From assembly GCA_963719035.1 (NCBI GenBank), contig CAVRAO010000008.1, forward strand, positions 352,001-416,000: a DNA stretch of 64,000 bases. Direction: 5' to 3'. The DNA comes from Methanobacteriota archaeon (GTDB lineage Archaea; Halobacteriota; Bog-38; Methanoflorentales; Methanoflorentaceae). Shown piece after piece: positions 20,377 to 46,810 of the stretch. Position 1 is the first letter of the stretch. Every line of letters begins with the position of its first letter. The position numbers and the translations under genes were made by a program. The notes beneath the pieces are model-generated. The model saw nothing but the letters and a program-made list of their open reading frames with translations, was not told the DNA's origin and did not search any database.

Positions 20377-22611
<2,235 letters not shown>

Positions 22612-22647
22612 CTACTTTGAATACTAGTGTTTCGCTGCTCATCTAGT

Positions 22648-26345: not shown

Positions 26346-26548
26346 AGGATGTTCACCTCTTGTTTTTTGCCTCTGCTGACACCCGCTCAGCGCTCACCTT
26401 CTTTTGGGTCAGAGGGCCCTCGCCGACTCCGGTCGCGTCAAGTGCATAGACTATGCCGGCTTGCTTGCCTATTGCCTCAGCTCTCGAGTGCGGTGACCGT
26501 TGAGTTTGGCAAGCATCTCGGCGCTTGCCTGTAGGGGGTTCCTTTTTC

Positions 26549-26974: not shown

Positions 26975-27084
26975 AGGGCTCTGTTTTTTTTTGCAATAAT
27001 AATGGCTCTTTAAACCACACACAATTAGTGAAAAATGCTGATATATGTGACGATTACGTAAACCGGATAACAACCTACTCGTGA

Positions 27085-27109
27085 TCGTCTATATCAGGCG
27101 AGGGGTCAC
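27085..27109 (+). repeat. tRNA-Val anticodon-arm-like motif (putative att-like site)
   Basis: TCGTC-TATATCA-GGCGA-GGGGTCAC; near-identical to 32161 and 29730. Confidence 0.6.
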
Positions 27110-27154
27110 TCACATATGGTGCATGCCCGCAGGAGGGAATGCTCGTAACCTGTC

Positions 27155-29518
27155 CTACTGGCGCGCCATGGCAATCTTCATGTCAGCTTCCTTATCCGGG
27201 ATCAGCTCGCCTGACAGATCCAGCGTGACGCGCTTAATGGTTCCTGTGAAGCAGAATGGTTCTCTGTATTCCTCCGGCGCCGCGGGCTCGCCGCCGTCAT
27301 AACCGCAGGACAGGCCTTGCGTCCCAAACATGATCGGAACCGAGTGGGGCATGTCGATGCTGGCAACCAGCTTACGGTTGATGTAGAGCTGGCCGCGTGC
27401 CGGCACCCCTTTCCCCTGGGCAATGTCGGGCTTGCCGGTCGGCTCGAACTCGTAGCGCAGCTCGACGTCGCCCTCCGGGACCGGCTCGCTGGACGTGAGC
27501 CAGAACCTGTCGCGGCCGAGCCAGTTGTACAGGAAGTACAGTTTGTGGTTCTTGACAAAGAAGGTGTAGCCGCCGGTGCGGCCTCCCTGGGCCAGCAACA
27601 CCCCCTCTGCGCCGCCCGGCGGGATCACGACCTCGGCCGTGATGCTCCATGGTCGGTTGTACAGCTTGGGCGTGGCGGTAAAGGGGATCGACGAGCCGCC
27701 GGGGTAAAGGACGATCTTGTCTCTCGGCTTGGCGATCGTTGGGCGTTCCACATTGAGACGGCTGAGGACGTCGCCGTCGATGGGAAGCACGTTGTACTTG
27801 CCCGCTTCGGCCCACCAGCGGCCGATCATTTCGATCAGCTTGTCGCGGTGCTCGGCGGCTAGGTTGTGGCATTCAGAGGGGTCCTCGTCGACGTGGTACA
27901 GCTCCCAGTCATGGGTCTCGATATCCACGAGCACCTGGTTAGGAATGGGGGAACCGAACTGACGGCCCTTCTTGGCGGCCTCGGTGAAGCTCGGGCCCGG
28001 CCACGGGCAGACCGCCCGCCAGCCGTCGTGATAGATCGCGCGGTGCCCGAACATCTCGAAGTACTGGGTGTGGTGATTGCTGGGCGCGGCCGCCTCGTTG
28101 AAGGTATGGGCAAAGCTCACCCCGTCAATGGGTGCCTGATGCACGCCGCGGATGCCCTCCGCCTCCTCGGTGCCAAGGGCTTCCAAAACCGTCGGGACGA
28201 AGTCGATGACGTGCGCGTACTGAGTCCTCAGCTCTCCGCGGGCTTGGAAGCCCTTGGGCCAGGACACGATGCACGGGTCGGCGGTGCCACCCCGGTAAGT
28301 CTCTCGCTTCCAGCGGCGGAACGGTGCGTTGCCGGCATTGGTCCAGCCCCAGGGGTAGTGGTTGCAGGACTCGACGCCGCCCAGCTTGTCGAGCATCTTC
28401 AGGTTGTCTTCCAGCGTTTCCGGCGCATTGTTGAAGAAGAACATCTCGTTAAGCGAGCCCACTGGCCCACCTTCGGAGCTGGCGCCGTTGTCGGAGATGA
28501 CGATGATCAGCGTGTTGTCCAGCTGGCCGATCTCTTCGAGGAACGTGAGAATGCGCCCAAAATGATGATCGGTGAAGCTCACGAATCCAGCGTAGACCTC
28601 CATGAACCGGGCATAGAGCCGCTTGGCATCGGCGGGCAGCGTGTCCCAAGCGGGCACGTCAGGGTCATGCGGCGACAGCTCGGTGCCTTTGGGGATGATG
28701 CCCATCTCGAGCTGGCGCTGGTGGACGATCTTGCGGTACTCATCCCAGCCCATGTCGAACGCGCCCTTGTACTTGTCCGCCCACTCCTTGAACACGTGGT
28801 GAGGCGCGTGGCCGGCGCCCGTTGCGTAATACAGGAAGAAGGGCTTTTCCGGCGCGTTGACGTGCGCATCTTGGATAAACTCGATAGCCTTGTCGGAAAG
28901 GTCGATGCTCAGGTGATAACCCTCCTCTGGTGACGTGGGCTGCTCGACCTCGTGGTTGTCATAGACCAGCTCCGGGTACCACTGGTTGGTCTCGCCGCCC
29001 ATAAAACCGTAGAAACGCTCGAAACCGCGCCCCAAAGGCCAGCGGTCGTAGGGACCGGCTGCTGTAAGGTGTTCGGGGGGTGTCAGGTGCCACTTCCCGA
29101 CGCAGAAGGTATTGTAGCCCTTCTGGAGCAGCATCTCGCTGAGCATGCCCTTGTCAAAGGGCAGGATGCCGTTGTAGCCCGGGTACCCTGTGGAGGTCTC
29201 AGTAATCGACGCCAGCCCGATCGAGTGGTGGTTACGCCCGGTTAATATGCAACCGCGCGAGGGCGAGCACAAGGCCGTGGTGTGCACGTTGGTGTAGCGC
29301 AGGCCGTTCGCGGCCAAGCTGTCCAGCACGGGCGTCTCGACCAGCCCGCCGAAGCAGGACAACTGTCCGAAGCCAACGTCGTCCAACACGAAGAAAAGCA
29401 CATTGGGCGCACCCTCCGGGGGGCGCGGCGGCTCAGGCCAGGCCGGCGAGGACTCTTCTGTGGTGCGTCCGATGACGCCAGTAAACGGGGTCCCATCTTT
29501 GTAAGTCTTGATTGCCAT
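27155..29518 (-). CDS. Arylsulfatase (Cys-type formylglycine sulfatase)
   Basis: LDDVGF, CSPSR and GKWHL motifs; AAGGAG RBS before ATG 29518. Confidence 0.95.
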   Translation of the reverse strand: MAIKTYKDGTPFTGVIGRTTEESSPAWPEPPRPPEGAPNVLFFVLDDVGFGQLSCFGGLVETPVLDSLAANGLRYTNVHTTALCSPSRGCILTGRNHHSIGLASITETSTGYPGYNGILPFDKGMLSEMLLQKGYNTFCVGKWHLTPPEHLTAAGPYDRWPLGRGFERFYGFMGGETNQWYPELVYDNHEVEQPTSPEEGYHLSIDLSDKAIEFIQDAHVNAPEKPFFLYYATGAGHAPHHVFKEWADKYKGAFDMGWDEYRKIVHQRQLEMGIIPKGTELSPHDPDVPAWDTLPADAKRLYARFMEVYAGFVSFTDHHFGRILTFLEEIGQLDNTLIIVISDNGASSEGGPVGSLNEMFFFNNAPETLEDNLKMLDKLGGVESCNHYPWGWTNAGNAPFRRWKRETYRGGTADPCIVSWPKGFQARGELRTQYAHVIDFVPTVLEALGTEEAEGIRGVHQAPIDGVSFAHTFNEAAAPSNHHTQYFEMFGHRAIYHDGWRAVCPWPGPSFTEAAKKGRQFGSPIPNQVLVDIETHDWELYHVDEDPSECHNLAAEHRDKLIEMIGRWWAEAGKYNVLPIDGDVLSRLNVERPTIAKPRDKIVLYPGGSSIPFTATPKLYNRPWSITAEVVIPPGGAEGVLLAQGGRTGGYTFFVKNHKLYFLYNWLGRDRFWLTSSEPVPEGDVELRYEFEPTGKPDIAQGKGVPARGQLYINRKLVASIDMPHSVPIMFGTQGLSCGYDGGEPAAPEEYREPFCFTGTIKRVTLDLSGELIPDKEADMKIAMARQ

Positions 29519-29709
29519 GATCTGTCTCCTTTCGATCAAGTATTCAACGGTTGTGTTCGACTTTAAATTATCGCCATCAGATTACTGCGCTGCGCGCCTT
29601 CATTCTTAAAGAGCATGCGCTGATCGCACCCTCTTACGCAAACTACATCGTTGTCGCTAATCTACAGGTTTTGCGAGTCTGATGTCTCGCCAATAACGCA
29701 TTCTAGATA

Positions 29710-29751
29710 TCGCCATAGCGAGGTGGAGGTCGCCTGTATCAGGCGGAGGTT
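29710..29751 (+). repeat. Two tandem copies of the tRNA-Val-like motif
   Basis: TCGCC-ATAGCGA-GGTGG-AGG followed by TCGCC-TGTATCA-GGCGG-AGGTT (20-bp period). Confidence 0.6.
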
Positions 29752-29869
29752 AACTCGTTGTGAACTCCAGCTAGGGAAGTGCGAGCAGTAGCCCGTTTGA
29801 TTTAGAGAGACCGGCTGTATAATGGTATCAACAGATTTACTCTGAATAGGTTGTAATTTACGTAGCTAT

Positions 29870-30095
29870 ATGGAAACGATCGTCGCTTTGTATTCTCCCA
29901 CAAACCCGCCGTGCTTAGTATAATAAATGACGCCGTATGCGCGCTTCAAGGAGACATACCACTCGCTGAGTGGAAAGAGCCTTACCAGTCAGCAGAAGAA
30001 CTCGACAAGGAGCAAGCGGATGGCGTTCAGTTTTACGGATTGACTAAAAGAAGGCACGTGATGGGTGTCGCAGGTATCCAGCACGTGGTATGCCA
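29870..30095 (+). pseudogene. GNAT acetyltransferase 5' remnant
   Basis: IINDA...GDIP..WKEPY.S.EEL..E..DGVQFYG...GVAGIQ; truncated. Confidence 0.75.
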
Positions 30096-30183
30096 CGCTA
30101 CTCCCTCAAAACGTCAGTTTAGAGCGGTACAAGCGGCGCATTTAAGGGCGCGTATGATAACGTTGGCATAGTCAAAAAGCAAG

Positions 30184-30531
30184 GTGAATCCAATGGAAGA
30201 GAAAACTCAATTTATCACGTCTGTTGCAATCCTCTCGCGAAGGTTGAAGGAAGGCATGACCTACGAGGACTTCCGCAAGGCCTGGTACCATACTACTGGT
30301 TTTGGAGTGGAGGGCAAGGAAAACGAAGGCAGTAACCGCATGCTCACGTTAGTCAATGTGTTCGATCCGAGTGAGATCATCGTCCTAGGTTTTGCCACCA
30401 CTACCCTCGAACAGCTTAAGGATGCCCTTAACATCGATGTAGATTTCCGAGGAGAGAACCCTCTGGATGAGGTCATAGAACCCGAAATAGATAGAAAATT
30501 CGCCCTCCTTATTTCGGAGGATGATTTTTGA
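30184..30531 (+). CDS. Conserved hypothetical protein
   Basis: RRLKEGMTYEDFRKAWYHTTGFG; protein-like composition. Confidence 0.7.
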   Translation: MNPMEEKTQFITSVAILSRRLKEGMTYEDFRKAWYHTTGFGVEGKENEGSNRMLTLVNVFDPSEIIVLGFATTTLEQLKDALNIDVDFRGENPLDEVIEPEIDRKFALLISEDDF

Positions 30532-30790
30532 GCAGTGGGACAAATATCATACAAACCACCCAGCATCGAGGGAAAGACAACAAATCTAGCACGATTCTAC
30601 AAGAATTTACAGGCTGTAAAAAAGCTTTATATGGATGCTGGAAAAAGACGTGATGAAAAACTGCAGCACGGGCGAAGATGAAGAAACCTGCATAATCCAA
30701 AAAATTCAGGCAAGAGTTGCAGATGAACTCTCGCCGAATCGCGCGCGGTTAATCACAACAATTACGTGCTCAGCACGAACCTCAGCATCA

Positions 30791-30845
30791 TTATGGTAGC
30801 CGCTGAACATTGAGGAGATTACCGGTCCGAATCCGGTCGAGCCCA
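30791..30845 (+). pseudogene. Decayed tRNA 3' portion (Val-like); attR-type remnant
   Basis: AGATT-ACCGG-TCCGAAT-CCGGT-CGAGCCC-A gives a perfect T-stem, a near-canonical T-loop and an acceptor 3' strand. No matching 5' GGGCTCG strand. Confidence 0.75.
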
Positions 30846-30956
30846 TCGTTCTTTTGCGAATCAACGATACCGGAGCCAGCCCCAACCTGCGAAAAAGCAA
30901 TGTCTTATCAATTCACCGTAAATCGAACAGACAAATAAACGTCGTGGAGACAGCCT

Positions 30957-31946
30957 ATGCCGATGACACCTTTTGCTATCATGTCCCTGGTATCAAAATT
31001 CCAGGAATCGAGAATATTCCTGACAGCTGCCGAAATGGATGTCTTTTCGCTGCTGGCAAAAAAACCGATGTCGGCCCAGGAAATAGCGGATACATTAGAA
31101 GCTACTGTGCGGGGCGTCACCATATTGCTTGATGCTGTCGTGAGCATGGGGTTACTCGAGAAAAAGGAAGAGAAGTACCATTGTCCGGCCGACGTAGCCT
31201 CCATAATGTCAAAGGAGTCACCAACTTCGATAATGCCCATGATCTTGGTGGCTACGGGAGGATGGAAAAGGTGGTCGTATTTGACGGATATTGTGCGCCT
31301 TGGAAAAGACAGGATCAGAGGAACAGCGTTTGACTTCAATGAAAGCGAACAGGAGGCTTTTACCGGTGCCATGCATGCCATCGCCAATGAGCTGGCTCCC
31401 CGGATAGTGGCCGCCATAAAACCAGGCGTGGCTAGGAAACTACTCGACATCGGCGGTGGTTCCGGCGCATATACACAAGCCTTTCTCGAAGCCTCGCCCG
31501 GCCTGACCGCCACAATCTTTGATCTGCCGCTGGTCATTAACACGGCCCAACGGCGTCTGGCCACTACAGGTCTGCTCGACCGAATCCAATTTATTGCCGG
31601 TGATTTTTATAAGGATAAACTTCCAACAGGACACGATTTGGCATTGCTTTCGGCTATTATTCATCAAAACAGCCCGGAAAAAAATGTTGAACTGTACCGG
31701 AAGATATTCAGGGCCCTTCAGCCAGAAGGACGACTGGTTATCCGTGACCATATAATGAGTTCGGATCACACCCAGCCGACCAGTGGGGCCCTTTTTGCCG
31801 TGAATATGCTTGTTGGCACTGCAGGAGGCCGGACCTATTCTTTTGAAGAAATTAAGTCATCACTCGAATCGGCTGGTTTTATCAAGGTCAATCTGATACA
31901 GCCTGATGAACGAATGACGGGGTTGGTGGAGGGGTTTAAACCTTAA
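30957..31946 (+). CDS. SAM-dependent O-methyltransferase (Methyltransf_2 with dimerisation domain)
   Basis: LDIGGGSG, FDLP and AGDF motifs. Confidence 0.92.
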   Translation: MPMTPFAIMSLVSKFQESRIFLTAAEMDVFSLLAKKPMSAQEIADTLEATVRGVTILLDAVVSMGLLEKKEEKYHCPADVASIMSKESPTSIMPMILVATGGWKRWSYLTDIVRLGKDRIRGTAFDFNESEQEAFTGAMHAIANELAPRIVAAIKPGVARKLLDIGGGSGAYTQAFLEASPGLTATIFDLPLVINTAQRRLATTGLLDRIQFIAGDFYKDKLPTGHDLALLSAIIHQNSPEKNVELYRKIFRALQPEGRLVIRDHIMSSDHTQPTSGALFAVNMLVGTAGGRTYSFEEIKSSLESAGFIKVNLIQPDERMTGLVEGFKP

Positions 31947-32092
31947 TAGGGATCACAACTTGCAGGTTTGCCCACTCGAATGTATCAAACCGGACAAGAA
32001 GCGCATTGGCCTTTCTTGTTGTTGTTTCATCTGCGTGCACTACGGCCACAGAAAAAAGTGCTGAGAGAAATCAGAAAACGCCACCCTAAGCG

Positions 32093-32180
32093 CGAATCCT
32101 CGTCTTCACACGTCGAAATTAGTCTTATTTGACCACGAATCACCTTGTCTGATCAAGTGTTCGTCTATATCAGGCGGAGA
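32093..32180 (+). repeat. Two tRNA-Val-like motifs (32100 and 32161)
   Basis: CGAATCC-TCGTC-TTCACAC-GTCGAAA (matches ~46494-46520) and TCGTC-TATATCA-GGCGG-AGA. Confidence 0.65.
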
Positions 32181-32340
32181 CTCGATCCGCAAAAAGCTAG
32201 AGAGAGTTAGCTCAAAAACCAGTTGTTAATGAAAAACTGATGGAAAAACAACATCCTCGTCAAATAACAGGGTCAGAAACCCCGAACAACAATGCGGCCG
32301 ATCCATCCTTCAAGAAAAAACTCGATTAAAACAAGTGAGG

Positions 32341-32628
32341 CTATTCGACTTGCCCTAAGGTTGTTACTTCCTTAGGAACTACAACGACCTCGGCGACCGC
32401 ACAGTTGCGCTTTATCTCCTTGATTTCAATCTTAACTGAGTCGTTGATCTTTGTGTTTGGAACAAAGACCACAAGCCCGCTAATGCGCGCAATGCCGTCT
32501 CCTTGTCTAGCAGTATCTTCAATTTTTACGTCGTGTTTTTCGCCAACGTTCACTGGAGAGTCATTTGACGCTCCTGTGTCGTAACTTCCAAAACTACTGC
32601 CGAAACTACTGTTATTCGATTTATACAC
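32341..32628 (-). CDS. Stand-alone TRAM-domain RNA-binding protein
   Basis: PVNVGE..DVKIED..RQGDGIARISGLVVFVP. Confidence 0.92.
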   Translation of the reverse strand: MYKSNNSSFGSSFGSYDTGASNDSPVNVGEKHDVKIEDTARQGDGIARISGLVVFVPNTKINDSVKIEIKEIKRNCAVAEVVVVPKEVTTLGQVE

Positions 32629-33126
32629 GTTTCACCTCCTTTTCTTACTGTACAACCATACGTGTGGACCACATATAGTCTTATGCTACGTTGCTAAACA
32701 GCCCAATTTGGCGAAATTAGGCATTTTTTGCCGTTTTTTAAAAAAACGGCCTTTTTCGAAGTGTTGAAATAGTATTAGTGAGACAGTACGTTGTTCGATC
32801 AGGGCCTTAAGGCAGTTATGCCGCTTCACTACTATAGCATGGAAACCGGGTTGTTTATTTCTGATCCGGTATAACGTCTTGGGGCTCTGACCAATGTATC
32901 AACTGGGCATTGAGTGGTGTTTTTCATTTGTAAGTCTATCTGTGTCGCGTGCGGCTAATCACCACTATTAAGGGAGCGGCACCGACTGCGTCCACTATTA
33001 TGGTAGCAAGTTCTTAAGTTAAGAGATCGCAATCCCGAACTGGCTAAGGTAGTCTTGATAACTTCCTTCTTTTTCGACGTATCAAACGTGCGCAGCTATA
33101 AGCGATCACCCGCCGTTGTACCTTTG

Positions 33127-33429
33127 ATGAAAGAGAGAACAAAAACAGAACAAGACGAGACAAGCGGCGTCGCTGTCAGTACGAAGAATGTAACTAGTAA
33201 GAAAACTGAAATCGGCAACACAGAACAGACGGCCAACATGCTCAAAGATGAGATTAAAGCGCTTGACGGTGAGCAACGCGCAGCAGTCATACTAGAGGCT
33301 AGCTTGAAACATGGGGAGACAAAGCGCATCTTAGAGCTAGCAGACACGACGCTTCAGCAGCTAGATGCCACTATCGCGGATAGTTATGCTCAGTTTCGAC
33401 GCACAACGGGTTTGACTGCGTTAGATTAG
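33127..33429 (+). CDS. Hypothetical protein
   Basis: Open frame followed by a hairpin and T-tract. Confidence 0.5.
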   Translation: MKERTKTEQDETSGVAVSTKNVTSKKTEIGNTEQTANMLKDEIKALDGEQRAAVILEASLKHGETKRILELADTTLQQLDATIADSYAQFRRTTGLTALD

Positions 33430-33441
33430 AAAAGACGCCGC

Positions 33442-33482
33442 AGCCGGTTCGAAAAATTTAGGTCGGCTCTTTTTTTCTTTTT
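33442..33482 (+). terminator. Hairpin plus long T-tract
   Basis: AGCCG...CGGCT stem followed by a long T-rich tract. Confidence 0.55.
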
Positions 33483-33497
33483 CCTACAGGTCGCTAA

Positions 33498-33524
33498 TAA
33501 GCGTTTGTGGAGAGACGTGCGCAG
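33498..33524 (+). repeat. 27-bp direct repeat, copy 1
   Basis: TAAGCGTTTGTGGAGAGACGTGCGCAG; 26/27 identical to 44174-44200. Confidence 0.9.
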
Positions 33525-33635
33525 AGGATAAGGCATAAAAGAGCCCCTTTAGCTATTTCTCGGAAGAAGATGTAGCAGCTTAATAATAGTAGCGCACCCA
33601 TCATCGCATTATCAACGTGCGGAGGTCGGTAAAAT

Positions 33636-33842
33636 ATGGGCGGAATAGACAGAGATGACTTAAAAAAGGTATTGGAAGCGTTGAGCAAGAAGAACGCGCT
33701 GCACGATGGCGATATCATCGAGGTCATTAAAGAAGGCGAACAAGACCCAACCAGGGTTGCGATTTCTGTAATTGATGATGAAGCGAAGTGTAACCAATGC
33801 GGGCCGCCGACGCCGCGCAAAAATAAGCAGCAAACCCATTGA
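33636..33842 (+). CDS. Small hypothetical protein
   Basis: GGAGGT RBS; 68 aa with one CxxC. Confidence 0.55.
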   Translation: MGGIDRDDLKKVLEALSKKNALHDGDIIEVIKEGEQDPTRVAISVIDDEAKCNQCGPPTPRKNKQQTH

Positions 33843-33956
33843 GCCGCCGCACGATAAGCGCACGTGTTAGTCCTGTACGGCGCCAAATGTATAAAGTGCA
33901 GCGCATACAATAACGGTTTTGCTATTCGCTTAGCCATCGGTTAGGAGGCGCTGATT

Positions 33957-34100
33957 ATGGCGACGATGATACCGCAATGTTATTTCTGTAAGCTCCACGA
34001 GAAAGGTATAAAATGTGCTAAATATGACCAAATCGCCCCCGAAATATTGGTTAACCTAATGAAGTGCACATTTAAGGAAGATACCGACCCGGAGGAGTAA
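33957..34100 (+). CDS. Small Cys4 protein (47 aa)
   Basis: AGGAGG RBS; MATMIPQCYFCKLHEKGIKCAKYDQIAPEILVNLMKCTFKEDTDPEE. Confidence 0.75.
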   Translation: MATMIPQCYFCKLHEKGIKCAKYDQIAPEILVNLMKCTFKEDTDPEE

Positions 34101-34179
34101 ACGATGACGATAATAGAGAGCGTAGTAAAATATGGCTTTTATACCCCCCTCAGATACATGTGCGTTCTTAAATAAGAGA

Positions 34180-34456
34180 TGGGCAATTGTGCAAAAATTG
34201 CGGCGCACCTATCGGTCTCGATTCAGTGCATTGCAAAGAATGTAGTCAAATGATCTCGCAAAGCGCGCCCTGTGGTGAAGGTGTGCAAAGCGATAAAGAA
34301 GCTGACGATCGCGTTTTTTTCCCATTTGTAATAAATGCGTTCACTATCATTGTAAGCTGAGTGGGAATGTAACCTGCGATACATACTTGCACCGCATATC
34401 ACCGGAGATACTAAACGGCGACAAAATGCGACCAATGGAGAGGTGAAGAAGGCTGA
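34180..34456 (+). pseudogene. Decayed zinc-ribbon fragment plus Cys4-family copy
   Basis: CKNCGAPIGLDSVHCKEC, then in another frame PICNKCVHYH..TCD..ISPEILNGD/CDQWRGEEG. Confidence 0.6.
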
Positions 34457-34590
34457 GAAACCCGCCCCATTTTGACAACGGAGGCTTTTAGCGCCTACCA
34501 ACGCTAACGTTAATTAATTAAGCGCATATAACTTTGTGGCTTTGCATCCGAAAAACGGTGCTGTGCACCTTTATAATGAGGTACCTGGAC

Positions 34591-34890
34591 ATGACCACCA
34601 CCACGATCACCGCCTCGAACCAGTATCCGGCCGTCGACTCCGCAGCGACCTTCACTGTCACCCTGAGGGAGGGCGCCGCCGGGCTGTCAAAGCCGGTCAG
34701 GATCTGGCATATCCTGCCTAACGGAGAACTACACGAGAACGGAACACACGACACCGGCGTAGGCGGGATCTACACGTTCACTCATAAGTATGCTTCCGCA
34801 GGCCAACGCGTCTATTACGCCGAGTTTGCCGGCGACGGTATGTATGCTCCCTCGCGCGGTTCCGTGACTGTGAACGTTGGCTCAAGGTAG
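34591..34890 (+). CDS. Single Ig-like domain protein
   Basis: GAGGT RBS; TTITAS...FTVTL...YYAEFAGD..YAPS resembles the modules of 3195-5459. Confidence 0.7.
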   Translation: MTTTTITASNQYPAVDSAATFTVTLREGAAGLSKPVRIWHILPNGELHENGTHDTGVGGIYTFTHKYASAGQRVYYAEFAGDGMYAPSRGSVTVNVGSR

Positions 34891-35026
34891 TGATAAACGC
34901 GTGGCCGTTGTTATTGCTGTTTTACTGACCGTACCCCTCCTTTTTTATGATTGAGCTCATCGATGTAGACACCCGGAAACTACCTTGACCTCCCTATTCA
35001 AGGACCAAACCAGGATTTGAAGAGCG

Positions 35027-36109: not shown

Positions 36110-36170
36110 ATCGTGCATCGAAAGCAGGGTTACCGTCTCCTATTGCCGTGCTGAGGTTATGGCGGGGGGA

Positions 36171-37733: not shown

Positions 37734-37735
37734 GT

Positions 37736-38974: not shown

Positions 38975-38976
38975 GT

Positions 38977-39930
38977 TCAACCCTCGTTGGCCTCGAAGAT
39001 GGACTCCTGTCCGAGTTCCCTGACTATTACCTCGTAAGCGGCATAGGGGGAGATCAGCCCGATCTCGGTGACGATGGAATCGATGTGCTCGGCGGGAGTG
39101 GAGTCGAAGACCGGGTTTCGGACTTTTACCCCAGCCGGCAACTGGTGGGGGTCCACGATCTCGCTGGCGTCCCGTTCCTCGATCTCTACGAGCTCCCCCA
39201 TGACGGTCTTAGGGGAGAACTTGTAGGTCTCCGCGCAGACGATGAACGGTACCCTTACCTCCTCAGCGGCCATGGCTATCTGGGAGGTGCCGATCTTGTT
39301 AATGAGCGCTCCGTTGGAGCAGATGGTGTCCGCCCCCACCAGCACGATGTCGACCTCCTTCATGATCCAGCGCACCGCGCTGTCGACGATAAGTGTAGAG
39401 GGGATCTGGGCGGCGGAGAGGTCCCTCACCGTCAGCAGCCCCTGCCTCCACGGGCGGGACTCGGTGGCATAGACGCTGATGTCCTTGCCATCGGCGTGGG
39501 CGGCCTTGATGACGCTCAGCGCGGCCTTGCTGTTGCAATGGGTGAGGACGGTCATCCCGCTCTTCAACCGCTTAGAGCCTATCCGCCCAATGGTCTCGAC
39601 GGCCTTACTCGACCGTTCTATGAAACGGTCGGCGTTGGATATCACCAAGGCGCGAAGCTCTTCCGTCTCCCTCGCCTTGGACGTCCCCCTCAAGGTGGCC
39701 TGGACCGCGTTCCAGAGCGATATGGCGGTGGGCCGGGAGCAGATGAGCGCCCTCCTGCCCTCCTCCAGACGCCGATGCAGTTCCGCGAGGTCATCGCCCT
39801 GATATTCCTGGGCCTGCTCCCGGAGCGCTTCAGCTGCGCTCCTGGCGATCAGCCCAGCTCCCCTGAGCTCCATGCTTTTGATAGATTCAGTGATCTCGAT
39901 CAATCCCAAGGCAACACCGTCCTTGTCCAC
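38977..39930 (-). CDS. Ribose-1,5-bisphosphate isomerase (eIF2B-like)
   Basis: RGAG, RPTA, THCNS, ESRP, GAD and NKIGT motifs. Confidence 0.95.
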   Translation of the reverse strand: MDKDGVALGLIEITESIKSMELRGAGLIARSAAEALREQAQEYQGDDLAELHRRLEEGRRALICSRPTAISLWNAVQATLRGTSKARETEELRALVISNADRFIERSSKAVETIGRIGSKRLKSGMTVLTHCNSKAALSVIKAAHADGKDISVYATESRPWRQGLLTVRDLSAAQIPSTLIVDSAVRWIMKEVDIVLVGADTICSNGALINKIGTSQIAMAAEEVRVPFIVCAETYKFSPKTVMGELVEIEERDASEIVDPHQLPAGVKVRNPVFDSTPAEHIDSIVTEIGLISPYAAYEVIVRELGQESIFEANEG

Positions 39931-39979
39931 ATGAACTCAGTGGCACGACATATAGTTTAGCGGTCCGACGGTCAAACAC

Positions 39980-40158
39980 TTTCCGTATCTGGTGGCGGTT
40001 GAGGAGAGCAGGAACGCCGCTTCGGTCCTTGGACTGGATGGAGGGATCGTAGGATCGCTAGCCAAGCCACACAGGGACTCTCGGTTAACTTCCCAGTGAG
40101 GACGAACGACGGTACCATCAAGGTGTTCGCCGGTTACTAAATCCAGCACAACAATGCC
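39980..40158 (+). pseudogene. gdhA: Glutamate dehydrogenase 5' remnant
   Basis: PYLVAVEE..NAASVLGLD...LAKPHR/SVNFPVRTNDGTIKVFAGY*IQHNNA. Confidence 0.88.
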
Positions 40159-40240
40159 GTTCTAGTACATTCATGGCGCCTTCGCAACGCGAAGGTACAC
40201 AAATGATCGATTTCTAGAGCCCGCTTTCGAAGCGGCCTCG

Positions 40241-43200
40241 CTACAGTGGAGGAGACAAGGGGACTCCATCCTCGATCTTAGACAGGGCTGAGTTCGGGAG
40301 CAATCTCTGACGGAACCGCTCTGGTATCAGGTCCCCAATGCGAGCAGTGGCCGCACAGATCACCGAATCCGCAGCGCCATAGTAGACGATCAGTTCATCA
40401 TCCGCATCGAGGATGCCCTTCTCCCCGTCTCTTGGGACGGCTCCACATGTGTACACGACGCGGGGAACCCACGACCGCTCATCCTCGCCCAGCTCCCATT
40501 CGTCTTCCGGCTCTAGAATGAAGTTGGGGGAACGATAGAGCAGTTTAGCGGGATTGTCCAGGTCCAAAAGCATAACCCCCAGCCGATAGATATGCGCATA
40601 GTCGACTCCGTGGGTGATGAGCAACCAGCCGAACCTGGTTTTGATCGGCTGTGAGCCGCCGCCGATCTTGGTCGCATCCCACATCATCCCGCAGGTGGCT
40701 CCCGCCAGTATTTTATGCATCTTTCTGGGCCAGGGGCAGCTCAGGTGGGGAGAGAAGGTCACCCATATATGCGGATCCACGCGATGCAGCATCGCGTACT
40801 TCCCGTTGAACTGCTCCGGAAACAAGGTGGCATCTTTGTTGAAGATTCCGGGGAACACCATACCGTGTCTCTCCCAGGCTTTCCAGCGTCTATGCAGAAA
40901 CGCATCCACTGGAATTGACGCTAAGGCGATTTGGGCCGTCATGCCATCGTAGGCAGTGTAGGTCATGTAAATATGATCCCCCATCCGTGTCAGACGAGGA
41001 TCCTCGCACCCTTGAGCGTCCGCCTTTCCCTCCGGCTCGAAGATGGGATGATCGAGCCGGCGTGTGAATCTGAATCCGTCGTCGCTGATGGCGAGGCCTA
41101 GCCGCGAGACGTTGTCTTCGCCGAATGCACGATAAACCAGATAGATCTTGCCATCCAATTTGATCGCGCCCGCATTGAGCACATATCTGGATTCCCAGGG
41201 ATGGTCTTTGACGGGCTTGAGCGCCGGATTATGCGCATACCGCTTTAGCATTCCGGCCGGAGACTGCCCTTCGATGGGACATGCTGTTGCTTCGGGCATG
41301 ATTTCGCTGGCTTCCTTTTCCGTTCCCAGCACCAGTCGGGCCAAATCTTCCCGTGCCCTTCCCTGTCCCATCAACTCGGTCACCTTCCCTCTCAAGTCTT
41401 CTTCGTTCCCTCCGGCAGCTTTGAAATATTCGAGGAGGAACTCCCTGGACGCCCAATCCGTCTCTACGTGCGCTGAGAGGGGTGGGGGAGAAGTCCTGCC
41501 CCCTCTGAAGCTGTAGCTCGCCCACGACCATGCGGAGCACGTCACAAAGCCGCCATCAGGGAGCGACAATGCCAGATGATAGGAATCGGCTACCGATCTG
41601 AGATCATCGGCTAGCGCCAGTCGATCCTTATTGCCCGGATTCTTCATGGCGATGGCCTCAGCCATCTGGCGCAGGCGCGTGGCCACTGATTGATGGATGG
41701 CGGCTTCGAATATACAGTGCGCCGAGAGAGGGTTTCTTCCCCAGTGGCCCTCAATCGACTCAATGATCTTCCGGCCAAAGTTCTTTCGCTCCAACGCAAA
41801 TCCCTGCCACACCTGACCGAACATTTCAGCCTCGACGATATTCTTGACAATGGTCGTCAGGTATCGTAGCCGGGGTAATTCACCGCCCATCCCCTTATGA
41901 AGGCTGGTCACCAAAATGCTGGAGCCCAATTTATCGAGGGCAGAAGAATCCTGCATCTCCGCCAGCGACGGGAAATCATCGCCATTGACCACGAGCGACT
42001 TAATATCGCAGGGGCCAGCATGTTCGGAACGAATGGCCTCCCGAATGAAGCCCCAGAGCCCCTCGACGTAGTCCCGATCCTCTACCCAGCTCACCAATGC
42101 CAGAACGTCCCGGGGATCGTATTTTTGCAGGAGTTCATCCAGCGTGTCAAAACCGAGTATGATCGGCAGAACCGTCGGCGGCATTTGCGCCAATATCGCA
42201 GAGATCAATTCGGGAACCAGGGAGAAGGCCTCCTGATGGGGGCAGTCGGCAAAAACAGCGTCGACCACCTGTTGGGTGCCTTCGATGGTCGAGAGATCGA
42301 TATCGGGGAAAAGACGGTTCTCCACAGAGAGGAGGAATTTGTGGACAGCACGAGACGTTTCCTGAGAGCTGGCTTCGCGCCGGACTCCCAGCCGCTCATA
42401 GACGAAATGCTCGAATTCTTGGCGGCGTCTGGCAAACACCGAATCATAAACATCGTTTGCCGTGACGATACCGCCGTCGGGGGCTCGTAACTGCGACGGA
42501 ACCACCAGAGGCACGCCGGGAATGAACTCCCGATAGGTCACATGGGGCACCGGGGGTTTGAGCGCTTCGGCCTGCTCCTGCCATGCTGCCATGAATGTCG
42601 GCCTCTGAACGAGGAACTCATTCACCAGCGCTTCGGTCCGCGACTCGGCTTCGATGGAGATGAGATGGTCGGCATTCACAGGGGCGGTCGACTCCAGTTC
42701 AGTCTTCAGCGCTTCGATTTCGATCAAGTTGCAACCGGTGAACCCTTCATACAGTGGAATGACGGAATCGCCTAAGTCATCCTGGGAAAAGTCTCGATTG
42801 AAGGCATAAGCCAAAAGCAGAGTATACAGGATGGTCGTCCACAGGCCGGCTGAGAATGTGAACTCCCTCGCTTGGACGTCAGCCATATTCTCCAGTTGCC
42901 GGTAGATCTCAGCCGGGAATATCTTGTCGTACAGCCAATGGAATTGGTTGAAACCCTCCTGATATTTGGCCATCAGCACATCCGTAGTCGTCTCTGAATC
43001 CACAGGCCGGTGCGATTTCCGAACGCCGACTGTCGGTAATCGTTTCAGAATAGGCGGCTCTTCAGTGATTTGAGTCGATTGCCACCAACCCTGGTCTTTA
43101 AGAATTTGATCGAATAGCGATCGGGTCATCTGCCGGAACACCAGTTCCCGCTTCGCTCCTGATTCTTTATGGATTTTCACCCCGAGGTTGGCTTCGCCGA

Positions 43201-43948
43201 TCCGGGCGTTGGTGACGATAGCGTTGGTGACAAGCCAAGCATCTACCCCATGTCCACTGGTTGTTGTGTTCCAGTTGCGGCGCGCATCATCCCGATACAC
43301 CCGAAGCAGTTGGTGGGCAATGCCCCAGAGGCCGCTCCTGAGGGAATAGACCGGAGAGTTGTACACTGAACTGAGCAATGGATACGTCAGACTGGCGTGC
43401 GTGAGGACGTCCGGATAAGGCAAATTGAACCGAGAGACCACCAGATCCATCTGACCACGCTTGACGGGGTCGAGCAAAGACCGAATCCACTCCGGGGCAA
43501 GCCCCAGCACTTCTTCTTTGCTGCTTCTGCTGGCCAGATCGGCCTCCAGCAGGACCAGATCGCTACCCAGTCGATCCGCGATCTCTATGATCGCGCGGAT
43601 ACTCCAACCCTTCCCATCCAGTAGGTCATCGTCGAATGTGAAGGCGATCCGCTCCACAAGGGATTCCTTCCTTAGACGCGTGGAGTTGATGGCCTCGAGC
43701 GCTTTTCCGCCCGCCGGAGACCCGGCGGCCACGATCACCGATTTCGCATCGGGATAGTATTGATCCAGTCCCTGGACGGCCGTCCTTAACACGTGACCAA
43801 TCGAGTCCGCTTCATTGAAGAAGGGAATCCCCACAACGATATCCGCTGCGCCTATGTGCTGCGCCTGACCGAGAGGGCCCTTTATCGCCTTCCGAAAACG
43901 GTCCCGCAGCTGGTTGCGGCTCGCGATTCCATTCAGAGGGATTGGCAC
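40241..43948 (-). CDS. Fusion of a GT-A glycosyltransferase (glucosyl-/mannosylglycerate-synthase-like), a central region and a GH130 glycoside phosphorylase
   Basis: DIVVGIPFFNE..IGHV and EADL at the N-terminus; NP.LKP, NAGA, YRA, EDPR, KDATLFPE and HGV at the C-terminus. Confidence 0.85.
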   Translation of the reverse strand: MPIPLNGIASRNQLRDRFRKAIKGPLGQAQHIGAADIVVGIPFFNEADSIGHVLRTAVQGLDQYYPDAKSVIVAAGSPAGGKALEAINSTRLRKESLVERIAFTFDDDLLDGKGWSIRAIIEIADRLGSDLVLLEADLASRSSKEEVLGLAPEWIRSLLDPVKRGQMDLVVSRFNLPYPDVLTHASLTYPLLSSVYNSPVYSLRSGLWGIAHQLLRVYRDDARRNWNTTTSGHGVDAWLVTNAIVTNARIGEANLGVKIHKESGAKRELVFRQMTRSLFDQILKDQGWWQSTQITEEPPILKRLPTVGVRKSHRPVDSETTTDVLMAKYQEGFNQFHWLYDKIFPAEIYRQLENMADVQAREFTFSAGLWTTILYTLLLAYAFNRDFSQDDLGDSVIPLYEGFTGCNLIEIEALKTELESTAPVNADHLISIEAESRTEALVNEFLVQRPTFMAAWQEQAEALKPPVPHVTYREFIPGVPLVVPSQLRAPDGGIVTANDVYDSVFARRRQEFEHFVYERLGVRREASSQETSRAVHKFLLSVENRLFPDIDLSTIEGTQQVVDAVFADCPHQEAFSLVPELISAILAQMPPTVLPIILGFDTLDELLQKYDPRDVLALVSWVEDRDYVEGLWGFIREAIRSEHAGPCDIKSLVVNGDDFPSLAEMQDSSALDKLGSSILVTSLHKGMGGELPRLRYLTTIVKNIVEAEMFGQVWQGFALERKNFGRKIIESIEGHWGRNPLSAHCIFEAAIHQSVATRLRQMAEAIAMKNPGNKDRLALADDLRSVADSYHLALSLPDGGFVTCSAWSWASYSFRGGRTSPPPLSAHVETDWASREFLLEYFKAAGGNEEDLRGKVTELMGQGRAREDLARLVLGTEKEASEIMPEATACPIEGQSPAGMLKRYAHNPALKPVKDHPWESRYVLNAGAIKLDGKIYLVYRAFGEDNVSRLGLAISDDGFRFTRRLDHPIFEPEGKADAQGCEDPRLTRMGDHIYMTYTAYDGMTAQIALASIPVDAFLHRRWKAWERHGMVFPGIFNKDATLFPEQFNGKYAMLHRVDPHIWVTFSPHLSCPWPRKMHKILAGATCGMMWDATKIGGGSQPIKTRFGWLLITHGVDYAHIYRLGVMLLDLDNPAKLLYRSPNFILEPEDEWELGEDERSWVPRVVYTCGAVPRDGEKGILDADDELIVYYGAADSVICAATARIGDLIPERFRQRLLPNSALSKIEDGVPLSPPL

Positions 43949-44173
43949 TTTATGCTCCTTTGGGAATCCTGGTCAAGACCTGGAAACCCCCCGACCCGGT
44001 ATGTGGAATTTCAAGGGGTCTTACCACCTTCTCTGTCCATGCAATATGTCTCTTTCTGCTGCGACTGCTGTGTGGCAGCCTATCACGTCCACACAAAGGT
44101 TTGACTGCGTTAGATTAGATCGGGCGCCACTAAGGTCTGATAAATTTAGTTTTGTTTTTTCAACCTGCCGCCG

Positions 44174-44200
44174 TAAGCGTTTGTGGAGAGACGTTCGCAG
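44174..44200 (+). repeat. 27-bp direct repeat, copy 2
   Basis: TAAGCGTTTGTGGAGAGACGTTCGCAG. Confidence 0.9.
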
Positions 44201-44256
44201 TAAAACGACAACACCCGCCTTTGTTGGATGTTGCTCTGCAACATCGACACATTTAT

Positions 44257-44433
44257 TTAATCATCCTCAATGCCCTCAAGAACTTCTTCTAAGATCTCTC
44301 TCACCCGCCTATTGGTCATCGCAGCAGAACGGGCCAGCTTCGTTTCAGGGAACGAAACGTCTTTAGACAGTTGGTCTAGGTCTTCTTTCTCATGGTTGAG
44401 CAAGTCAAGAACCTCTAATAGCCTCTCTTTCAT
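44257..44433 (-). CDS. Small helical hypothetical protein (58 aa)
   Basis: GAGGTGA RBS; MKERLLEVLDLLNHEKEDLDQLSKDVSFPETKLARSAAMTNRRVREILEEVLEGIEDD. Confidence 0.75.
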   Translation of the reverse strand: MKERLLEVLDLLNHEKEDLDQLSKDVSFPETKLARSAAMTNRRVREILEEVLEGIEDD

Positions 44434-44507
44434 TTATTCACCTCTTATAATCAGAAGGTTTCATAACAGTCCTTCTGCCATCTTTTTCACCTTTTTAAAA
44501 ATACTTG

Positions 44508-44792
44508 CTAACTAAACTTTGCAGCAGAGCGTAACGTAACGTTTTGAATCTCCAGGCCTCTCCCTCTGTTGCTGTCAACGTTCAGTTTCTTAACGTAGTG
44601 CGAACATTCATTTTTGCATTTTAGTATCTCGATAGGAACGCCGGTCATATACCACGCGCACATAGGGCCGTTAGACTCCGTACGGTATGCTTCGCGTTCA
44701 CGTTTACAGCGGCGATATACGAAGACGCACTTGCTACACGGAGCTGGAACTATGCCAGAACCGTCCCCCACAAATCTACTATAGTCAGTCAT
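44508..44792 (-). CDS. Small Cys4-family protein
   Basis: PCSKC...CAWYMTGVPIEILKCKNEC. Confidence 0.65.
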   Translation of the reverse strand: MTDYSRFVGDGSGIVPAPCSKCVFVYRRCKREREAYRTESNGPMCAWYMTGVPIEILKCKNECSHYVKKLNVDSNRGRGLEIQNVTLRSAAKFS

Positions 44793-44867
44793 CTGCTTCC
44801 GTGGAAAAAAAGCAGCCTTCGATTATGCTCGATTATATATTGTTGACTGCTGCTAACAACGGACTGC

Positions 44868-45407
44868 CTAAGAAGAACCGTAAGACTCTTGAGAGAACGC
44901 CCAGCTGTGGAAGATCAAATTTTGACCGTAATTGCACATGAACCAGTTAGCACTGTGGTTGCCCACCCATACCTCTTCGTAAGCTTTCGTAGCTTTGTAC
45001 GCAGCCGTATGTGTTCGGTTGACTTTGTATCCTTCCTTCAGTTTAGCAGCTATCGTTGCATTATACACATTTTTCGCTGCGGCTTTCGACTTGGTCTTCT
45101 CAATGACGATCGTCACGCGTGGACTGCCCGGAGTCGCGTTTCTCCCAACTCCCTTGTAAACGTCGTTCCCTCGCGCATTGGTTGACTTTGCGAACGGCCG
45201 TTCCATAGTGAGATTGTAGGATTCATACTGTTCAGTCAGGGCGCTGCTGTAATCGGCAGGCGTTTTTATTGGCGTGGACGTTGTCGTGGACGTTGTCGTG
45301 GACGTGGGCGTCGGTGACGACGTACTAGGGAGGCCGACCGTACAACCGGCTGCTGACAGCGATGCGACCAGAATAAGCGCTACAATCGCCGGTGTTTTTT
45401 TTATCAT
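44868..45407 (-). CDS. Hypothetical lipoprotein with Thr/Pro linker
   Basis: Lipobox AAGC; 12-bp repeats encoding STTT. Confidence 0.8.
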   Translation of the reverse strand: MIKKTPAIVALILVASLSAAGCTVGLPSTSSPTPTSTTTSTTTSTPIKTPADYSSALTEQYESYNLTMERPFAKSTNARGNDVYKGVGRNATPGSPRVTIVIEKTKSKAAAKNVYNATIAAKLKEGYKVNRTHTAAYKATKAYEEVWVGNHSANWFMCNYGQNLIFHSWAFSQESYGSS

Positions 45408-45485
45408 AAGTTTCGCCTTCGGTATAAACACATAAAACTCGACTTTTACAGCATATATCTTAGCATGCTTGCGCAGTTGAGAGGC

Positions 45486-46046
45486 CTAATTCCTTTTTAA
45501 GATGGCGTAAACGGCTCCAATAGCGATGAGCGCAAAGACGCCAAGGACGCCAGCAACTAAAGGCACGTTTATGTCTGTAGGCGCTGATGCGGGCGCGTTA
45601 CCTTGGACGGTATACGTCACGTTAGTCGCTAGTGCTCGGAGGACCGTCGAACCGCCTCCCACGTTTTGAGTCGTTGACGAATTAACGACCATGCGTGAGC
45701 TGAAAGTGCCCTCATTGGCATCGCTCGGCACGTCAAGCCTCACAGCTATGGTGATGTTTGATTTTGGAGCGATTGAACCGGATGAGGGCGACGCTGTGAG
45801 CTGACCGCTCGTGTTTGCTACATTGGTGAAGGTGACAGAATACGCAAGCGTCGAATTGTTGGCGGTGTTGGTGAGGACCACGTCCCGCTCTGCACTCCCC
45901 CCTCGTCCGACCGTGCCGAAATCAATGAGATTTGAAACGCTTGGGCTAGTTTGTGCGTTTACTGCTGTACTTATGGCAACAAGAACCGTAAGGAAAATAA
46001 CAAAAAGAGGCGTTGCGCCTCGCTTAACATTAAAGCTCATTTGCAC
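45486..46046 (-). CDS. Exported Ig-like protein with C-terminal TM anchor
   Basis: Signal peptide, IDFGTV...P.SGSIAP, TM helix plus KRN tail. Confidence 0.8.
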   Translation of the reverse strand: MQMSFNVKRGATPLFVIFLTVLVAISTAVNAQTSPSVSNLIDFGTVGRGGSAERDVVLTNTANNSTLAYSVTFTNVANTSGQLTASPSSGSIAPKSNITIAVRLDVPSDANEGTFSSRMVVNSSTTQNVGGGSTVLRALATNVTYTVQGNAPASAPTDINVPLVAGVLGVFALIAIGAVYAILKRN

Positions 46047-46186
46047 CCCCGCTCGCTTACTTTCATTCGACCATCAAAGAACATTTCGGCTATTTCCGGT
46101 CAATCGACCTGTTGATGGCACAATCGGTACCACGTCCTTTTCGGTTTGTGCCAACGAATCCAGGCAATTCACAGCCTTATCTAGCT

Positions 46187-46366
46187 TCAAAGCTCTAACA
46201 CGCGCACGGAGCAAACGTTGCGGAAGGGTATGAACGTCGAGCCCGTAGCAGCAGAACTTATGGTCAAACCGATGGCGTCAACGTCGACGAGGTTTCCTTC
46301 CCACTCAGTATCCTTTTGTATGCTCTTTATAGTAACGCGTTTCCCAATTTTCGTTTTTAACCACAT
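46187..46366 (-). CDS. Small Sm/LSm-like protein
   Basis: IGKRVTI......EGNLVDVD..GLTI......FIPFRNV.SVR; AAAGGTG RBS. Confidence 0.6.
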   Translation of the reverse strand: MWLKTKIGKRVTIKSIQKDTEWEGNLVDVDAIGLTISSAATGSTFIPFRNVCSVRVLEL

Positions 46367-46493
46367 AATGGCACCTTTCTTACGTTTGCATTGTAACTGA
46401 ATAAAAAGATAGCGACTGTGCAAAAAGAGACTTTTTCTTCTTCTTACATTGTGATCATTGACCCATCTGATGCGTGATGCTCAAAAAAACTCC

Positions 46494-46547
46494 CGAATCC
46501 TTCGTCTTCACACGGCGAAAGAGCCAGGTCCGAATCCGGCCGGGGGA
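46494..46547 (+). pseudogene. Decayed tRNA-Val(CAC)-like anticodon arm plus T-arm fragment
   Basis: TCGTC-TTCACAC-GGCGA (pairing stem, CAC anticodon), AAGA, then GCCAGG-TCCGAAT-CCGGC-CGGG. Confidence 0.7.
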
Positions 46548-46810
46548 TATGCTATTTTGTGATTGCCACAACCTAAGCGACACGAAAGCTTTCGTGTGCT
46601 GATGAATCGTAGAAAGGGTTGAAGTGTACGCGGGCCAAGGGGTGTGGTACCAGCAAAGTCACTAATGTTTAAGTATCTCGTTATTGAGAGTACTCGTCCG
46701 GTCACAGCAATTTGGCTCGTTCTCGAATGGGAAGTAGTTTAGTTGTATGCGAAAGTGCGGTCGGCACAAAATGGGAGCGATTTGAACGTCATTGCATTAA
46801 GGAGTGGTTG

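Follow-up and report, generated by a model that had tools for sequence, protein, structure and literature searches.

Why does a tRNA-like hairpin recur between unrelated genes in this archaeal genome, and what put it there? The stretch analysed here (the window, 64,000 nucleotides (nt), numbered from its own first letter) lies on contig C8 of the assembly that we call G000. An earlier note on this DNA had described a motif resembling the anticodon arm of tRNA-Val, with a seven-base loop that varies from copy to copy, and had proposed that the copies mark the junctions at which the cargo genes change. This proposal is supported: the copies behave as recombination joints, by the reassortment of their flanks, by the breakpoints between genomes and by a variant found in two metagenome runs. 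The motif is above its background frequency, it matches the host tRNA-Val genes and the breakpoints do not lie away from the sites, which disposes of the three failures that the note had foreseen for its own proposal. We consider it probable that the motifs are core attachment sites of genus-specific tyrosine integrases targeting tRNA-Val genes, and that the island in the window was built by the elements of these integrases.

How many copies are there, and are they more than chance? The core pattern searched was TCGYC-N7-GKYGR, together with a stricter 20-nt form, YCGYC-N7-GGYGRAGG, that includes the trailing AGG. On the plus strand the first pattern matches at 27085 (loop TATATCA), 29710 (ATAGCGA), 29730 (TGTATCA), 32100 (TTCACAC), 32161 (TATATCA) and 46502 (TTCACAC). 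All six are intergenic, and the search returned the strong copies where they had been placed, on one strand. The single minus-strand match, at 55580, is unrelated. These 7 matches compare with 2.87 expected in the window, and 4 of 100 shuffles gave at least 7. Against the genome background (68 matches in 2.19 Mb, both strands counted), six same-strand copies within 19.5 kb have a Poisson probability of about 8e-7 for one strand and about 4e-5 for both. The stricter form has 6 perfect matches genome-wide, 2 of these in the window, and 54 with at most one mismatch, 7 of these in the window. The sequence CGAATCC(T)TCGTCTTCACACG is present twice, at 32093 and at 46494, as claimed.

Two weaker copies did not hold up. 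The one at 40176 is at chance level, as it needs two mismatches and 402 such matches exist genome-wide. The minus-strand copy at ~19358-19380 is off-pattern, though it abuts an integrase remnant at 19185-19378(-) that is described below.

The link to tRNA-Val is direct. The three host tRNA-Val genes have an anticodon arm that reads TCGCC-loop-GGCG(G/A), then AGG, with the loops TTCACAC, TTGACAT and TTTACAC, and the stem of the motif copies, TCGCC / GGCGG plus AGG, matches this arm as proposed. After the 46502 core come a T arm and an acceptor strand, both decayed, and beyond the anticodon arm its likeness is to tRNA-Val(GAC) (z 6.8). ARAGORN calls no tRNA there or elsewhere in the window, where no Rfam family was found either. 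With the element-side arm CGAATCC on its left, this copy forms a unit at 46494-46560(+) that reads as an attR-type end of the array.

A further fragment, additional to the copies listed above, lies at ~30788-30881(+). It is a decayed piece of the tRNA-Val(GAC) type that comprises the anticodon arm, the T arm, the acceptor strand and the leader downstream of it (z 22.8). It is the left border of the O-methyltransferase module. Well-kept counterparts stand at the same place in two related genomes (G003:C175 and G001:C47), in two differing variants, and their homology with the window begins inside the loop, at 30807. The unit at 32093-32116(+) joins the element-side arm CGAATCC to a TTCACAC core with a non-tRNA right side, as in an attR/attP-like joint, and has a homologous composite at C11:86717-86800(-) of G000. 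It is followed by a 44-nt spacer at 32117-32160(+) and then by a TATATCA core. This composite of TTCACAC core, spacer and TATATCA core is kept, with spacers of 44-85 nt, in G000 (twice), G001, G002 and G017. The spacer was considered as a decayed tRNA 3' half and rejected, as the likeness falls short of significance in the window (z 0.5) and the C11 copy shows only a weak one (z 3.2).

Elsewhere in G000 there are well-preserved tRNA-Val 3' fragments, each after a common non-tRNA sequence ending in CCGTC and each with the same sequence following the tRNA end. Judged by their sequence, these are classic marks of displaced target fragments. Fragments of this kind, with an element-side left arm CCGTC/CCGCC replacing TCGCC, are found in G000, G010 and G003, and the window has displaced copies at ~30800 and 46502. 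The attachment site therefore overlaps the tRNA gene, with displaced tRNA fragments at element ends, and the 32100, 46502 and decayed ~30800 copies are tRNA-Val attachment-site remnants of a genus-wide tyrosine integrase family.

What, then, are the other copies? In the TATATCA and TGTATCA copies, stem and AGG remain those of tRNA-Val, with a loop that is impossible for a tRNA; TATATCA and each of the tRNA-Val loops disagree at 4-5 of 7 positions. These orphan cores stand at 27085-27104(+), where TCGTC-TATATCA-GGCGA acts as a docking site and is the left border of a 5,076-bp segment, and at 32161-32180(+), where TATATCA is the right border of that segment and the left border of a block with a TRAM gene. 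A doublet at 29710-29749(+) consists of two abutting 20-nt cores (ATAGCGA and TGTATCA).

The suggestion that cores other than tRNA anticodon loops serve as sites is borne out, since TATATCA is a conserved junction site and not a decay product. The 17-mer TCGYCTRTATCAGGCGR, with the TATATCA loop, has 24 matches in 9 of the 18 genus genomes, none in the reversed-pattern control and none in the six sister-genus genomes searched. Its 20-mer form is found in 65 metagenome loci, and five TATATCA-type copies are present in G000, of which three are in the island of the window. A wider pattern, YCGYC-N7-GGCGGAGG, gives 131 matches in 16 of 18 genus genomes vs 3 control matches. The recurring loop classes are the three tRNA-Val loops plus TATATCA, TACATCA/TACATTA, TCAGCGA and TCTGACT/TCTGATT, and orphan and tRNA-type cores alike come with both left arms, TCGCC and CCGTC/CCGCC.

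The non-tRNA loops could be mutated tRNA-Val fragments without a role, their clustering being a by-product of old integrations. The doublet in the window does look like this, as it is a point-variant of a TCAGCGA+TATATCA doublet in relatives (G014:C143 and G007:C7, with different outer flanks). TATATCA, however, is identical in the 24 genus sites and 65 metagenome loci despite unrelated flanks, and its copies lack longer common segments, so no single-locus duplication is seen. This explanation appears close to untenable.

The flanks of the cores are reassorted. Among TATATCA copies about 21 bases alone are conserved, and both flanks differ. Flank clustering used 88 of 89 sites, those with at least 40 nt on both sides. 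By their left flanks these sites fall into 36 clusters and by their right flanks into 32, with 46 combinations of the two. More than one right partner is seen for six of the left clusters, and more than one left partner for eight of the right clusters. Across the core, the left-flank cluster of 27085 meets 4 different right flanks, and a joint of 27084 to 32161, presented below, adds a fifth.

As had been claimed, the copies sit at homology breaks with relatives, and these breakpoints fall in the core. In BLAST comparisons homology stops at the core edge on the glyoxalase side (26519-27100), at 32161 on the TRAM side and at 29730 on the doublet. Metagenome loci match window 26519-27100 over 583 nt (89%) and end at the core. 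Homology with G004:C5 starts exactly at 32161, G007:C221 matches the left side only, and G017:1541680 has the right flank of the window from base 29730 on. Right-flank cluster R02 occurs with both TCGCC and TCGTC, and left-flank cluster L19 with both GGCGA and GGCGG. Since arm variants travel with their own flank, the exchange can be placed between core positions 4 and 17.

Has such an exchange left a natural variant? We compared contigs from four public runs (X1, X5, X9 and X10) with window 26700-46650. The X1 and X5 contigs have the filled form, as in the window. In X9 and X10, which come from different, unrelated metagenome studies, a contig passes from 27084 straight to 32161, leaving out 5,076 bp. 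At this joint 16 letters fit both sides, and the contigs continue 73 and 96 letters beyond it. The 16 ambiguous letters are the part that the two TATATCA cores have in common. The skipped DNA holds the sulfatase, the doublet, the tRNA fragment, the O-methyltransferase, a remnant of the N-terminal integrase part and the TTCACAC composite. A variant without the DNA between two identical cores, which the earlier note had asked for, thus exists.

The intervening TGTATCA core, with one overlap base different, was not used in this joint. Other tyrosine recombinases strictly require identical overlaps in both partners (PMC2817482). The skipping of TGTATCA, a single event, fits this rule. We take the run contigs to have been assembled with words of 31 letters, in which case a repeat of 16 bases cannot create the joint on its own. 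No joint of 32100 to 46502 was found in the contigs of the four runs which, being contig data, give no evidence of its absence.

Two further rearrangements were seen in these contigs, both with joints off the tRNA-Val-type cores. In X5, 34101-36165 (an AlkZ-like gene) is replaced by 33 other letters, and an X10 contig joins 44087 to 33397.

Hairpins may also have a structural or regulatory role, whether as terminators, operators, RNA stem-loops or repeats of the repetitive extragenic palindromic (REP) kind, and stand at junctions merely because they are intergenic. The copies are indeed intergenic inverted repeats, and one is 12 nt upstream of the glyoxalase open reading frame (ORF). Yet there are about 5 copies per genome, and clustered, unlike the high copy number and genome-wide spread of REP-type repeats. 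No T-run follows the copies, no neighbour gene or orientation is constant, and Rfam gives no match. Both flanks change at the core, and two copies bound a 5-kb insertion/deletion. We therefore regard a structural or regulatory role as very unlikely.

Which enzyme could act on such sites? Immediately downstream of tRNA-Val(CAC), contig C2 of G000 encodes a tyrosine recombinase of 436 aa, whose match to PF00589 is borderline (27.3 bits, cut-off 27.1). Integrases of this type have matches in 18 of 18 genus genomes, with 1 to 45 per genome, many of them short C-terminal pieces. Thirty integrase loci were fetched from the genus for a check of the upstream core. A tRNA-Val-type core lies just upstream, in the same orientation, in 11 of these 30, which are the closer relatives (42-100% identity in the tblastn match). 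The search for tyrosine recombinases near tRNA-Val, recommended earlier, was thus successful in 11 loci, the C2 locus included.

In 10 of these 11 tRNA-Val-linked loci the integrase frame is open back to the anticodon-loop core. At the opposite end of the elements there is a conserved ORF family, int(N), with ~70% identity, which continues in frame into the core. Unbroken ORFs extending from int(N) across the attachment site (att) and the tRNA-encoded stretch into the C-terminal part, int(C), were found in the metagenome (P0122, P0123, P0124 and P0125) and in G010 at 1290609-1291517. The recombination site is therefore inside the integrase ORF, with an int(N)/int(C) split as in SSV-type integrases. 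The gene adjoins its target tRNA in the genus; the window itself has only remnants. A 532-aa ORF in L070 was considered as a fused integrase and rejected, its int(N) part being out of frame. Searches returned no Pfam match and no usable ESM Atlas match for int(N), and the integrase sequence has no meaningful match in the PDB.

The earlier statement that no integrase lies in the window holds for intact genes, but remnants are present. At 19185-19378(-) there is a C-terminal remnant of a tRNA-Val-type tyrosine integrase, with the last ~60 codons and the catalytic Tyr region (tblastn with the C2 integrase, two high-scoring segment pairs (HSPs), 49-53% identity, E 9e-9). A frameshifted int(N) remnant at 31953-32092(+), directly left of the 32100 core, was found with the N-terminal parts of P0122, P0123 and P0124 (tblastn E 1e-5, and alignment). 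A possible int(N)-like remnant at 46403-46493(+), upstream of the 46502 core, has an internal stop and weak evidence (tblastn E 0.001).

Short C-terminal pieces of the integrase are common. G000 has ~30 HSPs of this kind, which span the final ~40-70 codons, the catalytic Tyr region among them; besides the one in the window, examples are C11:91834-93912, C8:149122-149268, C8:182357-182570, C12:43859-44071 and C5:1413-1625. The complete relatives G010 and G017 have 39 and 45 integrase matches, respectively. One recurrent form of these pieces begins ~10 nt from an inverted TATATCA core, and three C-terminal copies in G000 have a common conserved block ~100 nt upstream. Int(N) remnants, methyltransferases and this inverted C-terminal piece are all that was found to recur beside TATATCA cores, and no intact recombinase recurs there.

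The C2 element beside tRNA-Val(CAC) ends 17.4 kb away, with an int(N) copy (C2:508-879(-)) and a core (C2:519-560). The far-end core has a GAC-type loop, not CAC, and since the ends mismatch, the C2 island is also composite. The tRNA-Val(CAC) gene itself (C2:17956-18029(-)) has the T stem ATGCG/CGCAT vs GCCGG/CCGGC in the tRNA-Val(CAC) of relatives, and its acceptor strand makes a G-U pair. Both are as expected if the integrated neighbouring element supplied the 3' half.

In the mechanism that we propose, the core would be the tRNA-Val anticodon arm, with its two 5-bp stem halves as recombinase-binding arms and the 7-nt loop as the overlap for strand exchange; the next 3-5 bases (AGG, often AGGTC) would be kept too. 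The element attachment site would lie inside the integrase frame, int(N) reading through the core and the tRNA 3' half into int(C), so that after integration int(C) would remain next to the tRNA while int(N) came to lie at the opposite end of the element. Successive integrations, together with decay and recombination, would then produce a mosaic island, at ~27-49 kb of the window. Here 32100, 46502 and ~30800 would be tRNA-type joints, and 27085, 32161 and the 29710/29730 doublet would be orphan cores with the same arms and a non-tRNA overlap. Since tyrosine recombinases need identical overlaps, each overlap class would have its own exchange channel, and the DNA between two TATATCA cores would be inserted or lost as a unit.

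We infer that this integrase family, in trans, catalyses exchange at orphan cores, with cleavage bordering the loop. As no integrase is linked to an orphan core, it is the shared arms and the co-location that point to this enzyme.

Several observations weigh against this explanation. None of the 30 fetched integrase loci has a TATATCA-type core just upstream, and in the 65 metagenome loci no ORF was found that has TATATCA where int(N) meets int(C). The window of 64 kb contains no intact integrase, and ARAGORN finds no intact tRNA-Val anywhere on contig C8. In G010 and G017 the syntenic position is without such sites or island. PF16795 has no match at E<=5 in P0001, P0003, P0110 or P0124, and none at E<=1 in six frames of G000. 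The AlphaFold model of int(N), from a 9-row alignment, is poor (mean predicted local distance difference test score, pLDDT, 47.6). The presence/absence variant is one event only, and comes from contigs rather than raw reads; a direct repeat of 16-17 bp could also be deleted by slippage or microhomology, and some metagenome contigs could be chimeric at repeats.

Another possibility is that only the tRNA-type sites are integrase joints, and that orphan cores are exchanged otherwise, by another recombinase (such as the chromosomal Xer-like enzyme) or by general or microhomology recombination at a repeat of old elements. The count of 0 in 30 agrees with it, as do the further PF00589 genes in G000 (e.g. 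C8:184109-184572) and the 16 bases of identity at the deletion joint. Nevertheless, the orphan arms with AGG(TC) are those of the tRNA-Val site, and both arm types are present in orphan cores, as in tRNA-type cores. In G010, 5 of 5 TATATCA sites are within 80 kb downstream of a tRNA-Val gene and co-oriented with it. Reassortment at the same 17-21 nt across 88 sites is unlike random microhomology. Taken together, exchange by some other route seems unlikely, and we keep the tRNA-Val integrases as the probable agents.

G010 also shows how such an array is headed. In this complete genome, an intact tRNA-Val(GAC) is followed by same-strand TATATCA cores at 1.3, 39.5 and 45.4 kb from the tRNA start, with tRNA-Val 3' fragments at 1290961, 1304054 and 1307960, plus an integrase. 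The earlier note had predicted an intact tRNA-Val to the left of the array in the window; none is present on C8, but the logic of the orientation is sound, given that the G010 tRNA-Val(GAC) heads a co-oriented array. We also searched for an episomal form, and no viral contig with the TATATCA 20-mer was found. One IMG/VR contig has only a tRNA-Val beside an integrase fragment.

How does this compare with known systems? That archaeal elements integrate into tRNA genes, and that self-splitting integrases trap elements, is already known. In type I, SSV-type or suicidal integrases the attachment site is inside the integrase ORF, integration splits this gene, and elements once captured decay where they are; the strand exchanges of SSV1 Int border the anticodon loop (PMC8371274 and PMC7253208). 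The former also mentions tandem integration in archaea and reports PF16795 for all known suicidal integrases (PMC8371274). The family described here is like the SSV-type integrases (SSV1, pTN3 and pT26-2) in its tRNA gene target, its site in the ORF and its int(N)/int(C) split. It differs in having no detected PF16795 and only a borderline PF00589, and its host, going by homologue names, is a mesophilic Halobacteriota genus, unlike those of the SSV-type elements compared. It may overlap with the five Methanosarcinales integrases that Badel et al. list (PMC7253208). In the literature searched, including the available text of PMC8371274 and PMC7253208, no description of conserved non-tRNA overlap classes was found.

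Another parallel is offered by archaeal tandem arrays and gene capture at tRNA genes, and by bacterial islands with tandem accretion and cis-mobilizable elements. Shared with these are serial integrations at one kind of site, displaced tRNA fragments at the joints, integrase-less elements and recombination between non-adjacent sites. Unlike there, some joints here have an overlap that matches no tRNA, and no tRNA gene stands at the head of the array in the window.

The array could instead be a true integron-like platform, where a resident integrase with a fixed primary site and promoter captures promoterless single-gene cassettes. The likeness is real: short hairpin-forming sites lie between unrelated genes, units have no recombinase of their own, some intervals between sites hold a single gene, and a conserved flank, the glyoxalase side of 27085, faces variable insertions, being joined to at least 5 different right-hand sequences. 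However, nothing like a resident intI, attI or Pc promoter heads the array at 27085; only integrase remnants are present, and the genus integrases are element-borne and adjoin tRNA-Val. The flanked genes are on both strands (sulfatase (-), O-methyltransferase (+)), not single promoterless ORFs in one orientation with attC, and whole-element remnants, among them a tRNA half and an int(N) remnant, lie between sites. The sites also have constant arms and few discrete loops. The attC sites of integrons are variable and recognised by structure. A genuine integron is thus highly improbable; the term integron-like, used earlier, fails in its strict sense and is an analogy only, and the system is an accretion of elements and modules.

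In the Xer/dif-bounded pdif modules of plasmids, too, gene modules are bounded by tyrosine-recombinase core sites, as here. Engineered heterospecific lox/FRT spacer variants do not cross-react and so provide parallel exchange channels, which is again alike. Both have other enzymes and another site architecture; Xer/dif sites have Xer-type arms and a 6-bp spacer and are recombined by the chromosomal Xer enzyme, and the arms here are the tRNA-Val stem. The idea of spacer variants is known from engineering and appears natural here.

A broader idea, which we hold tentatively and with somewhat more doubt than belief, is that the orphan cores (TATATCA, TACATCA, TCAGCGA and TCTGACT) form a natural cassette-exchange network. 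Integrase-less modules would be moved in trans by undescribed self-splitting integrases of a non-PF16795 kind, as a functional archaeal counterpart of integrons and pdif modules, freed from the tRNA gene.

These observations add three things: a conserved family of attachment cores with tRNA-derived arms, away from tRNA and acting as module joints across genomes and metagenomes; a natural insertion/deletion variant bounded by two orphan cores; and an integrase family with its site in the ORF, yet without the domain signature reported for all known such enzymes. If orphan cores are true substrates, they provide a testable model for how integrases change target specificity through the overlap sequence, and for the spread of integrase-less gene modules in archaea. 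In the window such modules include the sulfatase and the methyltransferase, and possibly the AMP/RuBisCO operon and the GH130 enzyme.

As for the cargo, the conserved left flank of the first TATATCA site has a glyoxalase/VOC-family gene at 26549-27073(-) (PF00903, E 7.5e-18). The sulfatase gene at 27155-29539(-) (PF00884, E 5.5e-64) lies between the 27085 and 29730 cores, that is, between a TATATCA and a TGTATCA site, as first reported. It is followed by the O-methyltransferase gene at 30957-31946(+) (PF00891, E 3.8e-33) and, right of the 32161 core, by a small TRAM-domain gene at 32341-32628(-) (PF01938, E 6.6e-13), which belongs to a multi-copy block of the genus. Between the TTCACAC copies, Pfam assigns 35027-43948 to an AlkZ-like glycosylase (+), an operon of AMP phosphorylase, form III RuBisCO and ribose-1,5-bisphosphate isomerase type (-), and a 1235-aa GH130 protein (-).

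Compared with 17 same-genus genomes, window 26700-46650 is a mosaic, of which blocks are found 88-93% identical on different contigs with other neighbours. The O-methyltransferase gene is 92-93% identical on other contigs of relatives, where its neighbours differ. Its block has a tRNA-Val fragment as left border in both G003 and G001, and at its right border stands a TTCACAC core here, TATATCA in G003:C94 and, in G003:C175, a core of the TTGAC type. From ~49.2 kb the core genome continues, and everything left of there is variable; the left 49 kb of the window have no long synteny with G010, G017 or G006.

The AMP phosphorylase-like, RuBisCO and isomerase-type (IF-2B family) operon, at 36171-39930(-), is 88-89% identical on other contigs of relatives. 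Multi-copy small blocks across the genus lie at 32211-32712, 33043-33553, 33880-34139, 44225-44471 and 45499-46042. They contain the TRAM gene, short ORFs without a Pfam match and an ASH/Ig-like secreted protein, and may represent genes conserved among the elements. An oxidative-stress cluster (cupredoxin, catalase-peroxidase, glutathione peroxidase, HAD hydrolase and a fused MsrA-MsrB) occupies 19391-26345, to the left of the first core.

Finally, at the place syntenic to the right end of the island, G006:C24 has TCAGCGA cores and a tRNA-Cys gene. The two cores, at 55524-55543(+) and 73960-73978(-), are inverted and 18.4 kb apart beside this gene, and may be an inversion substrate.

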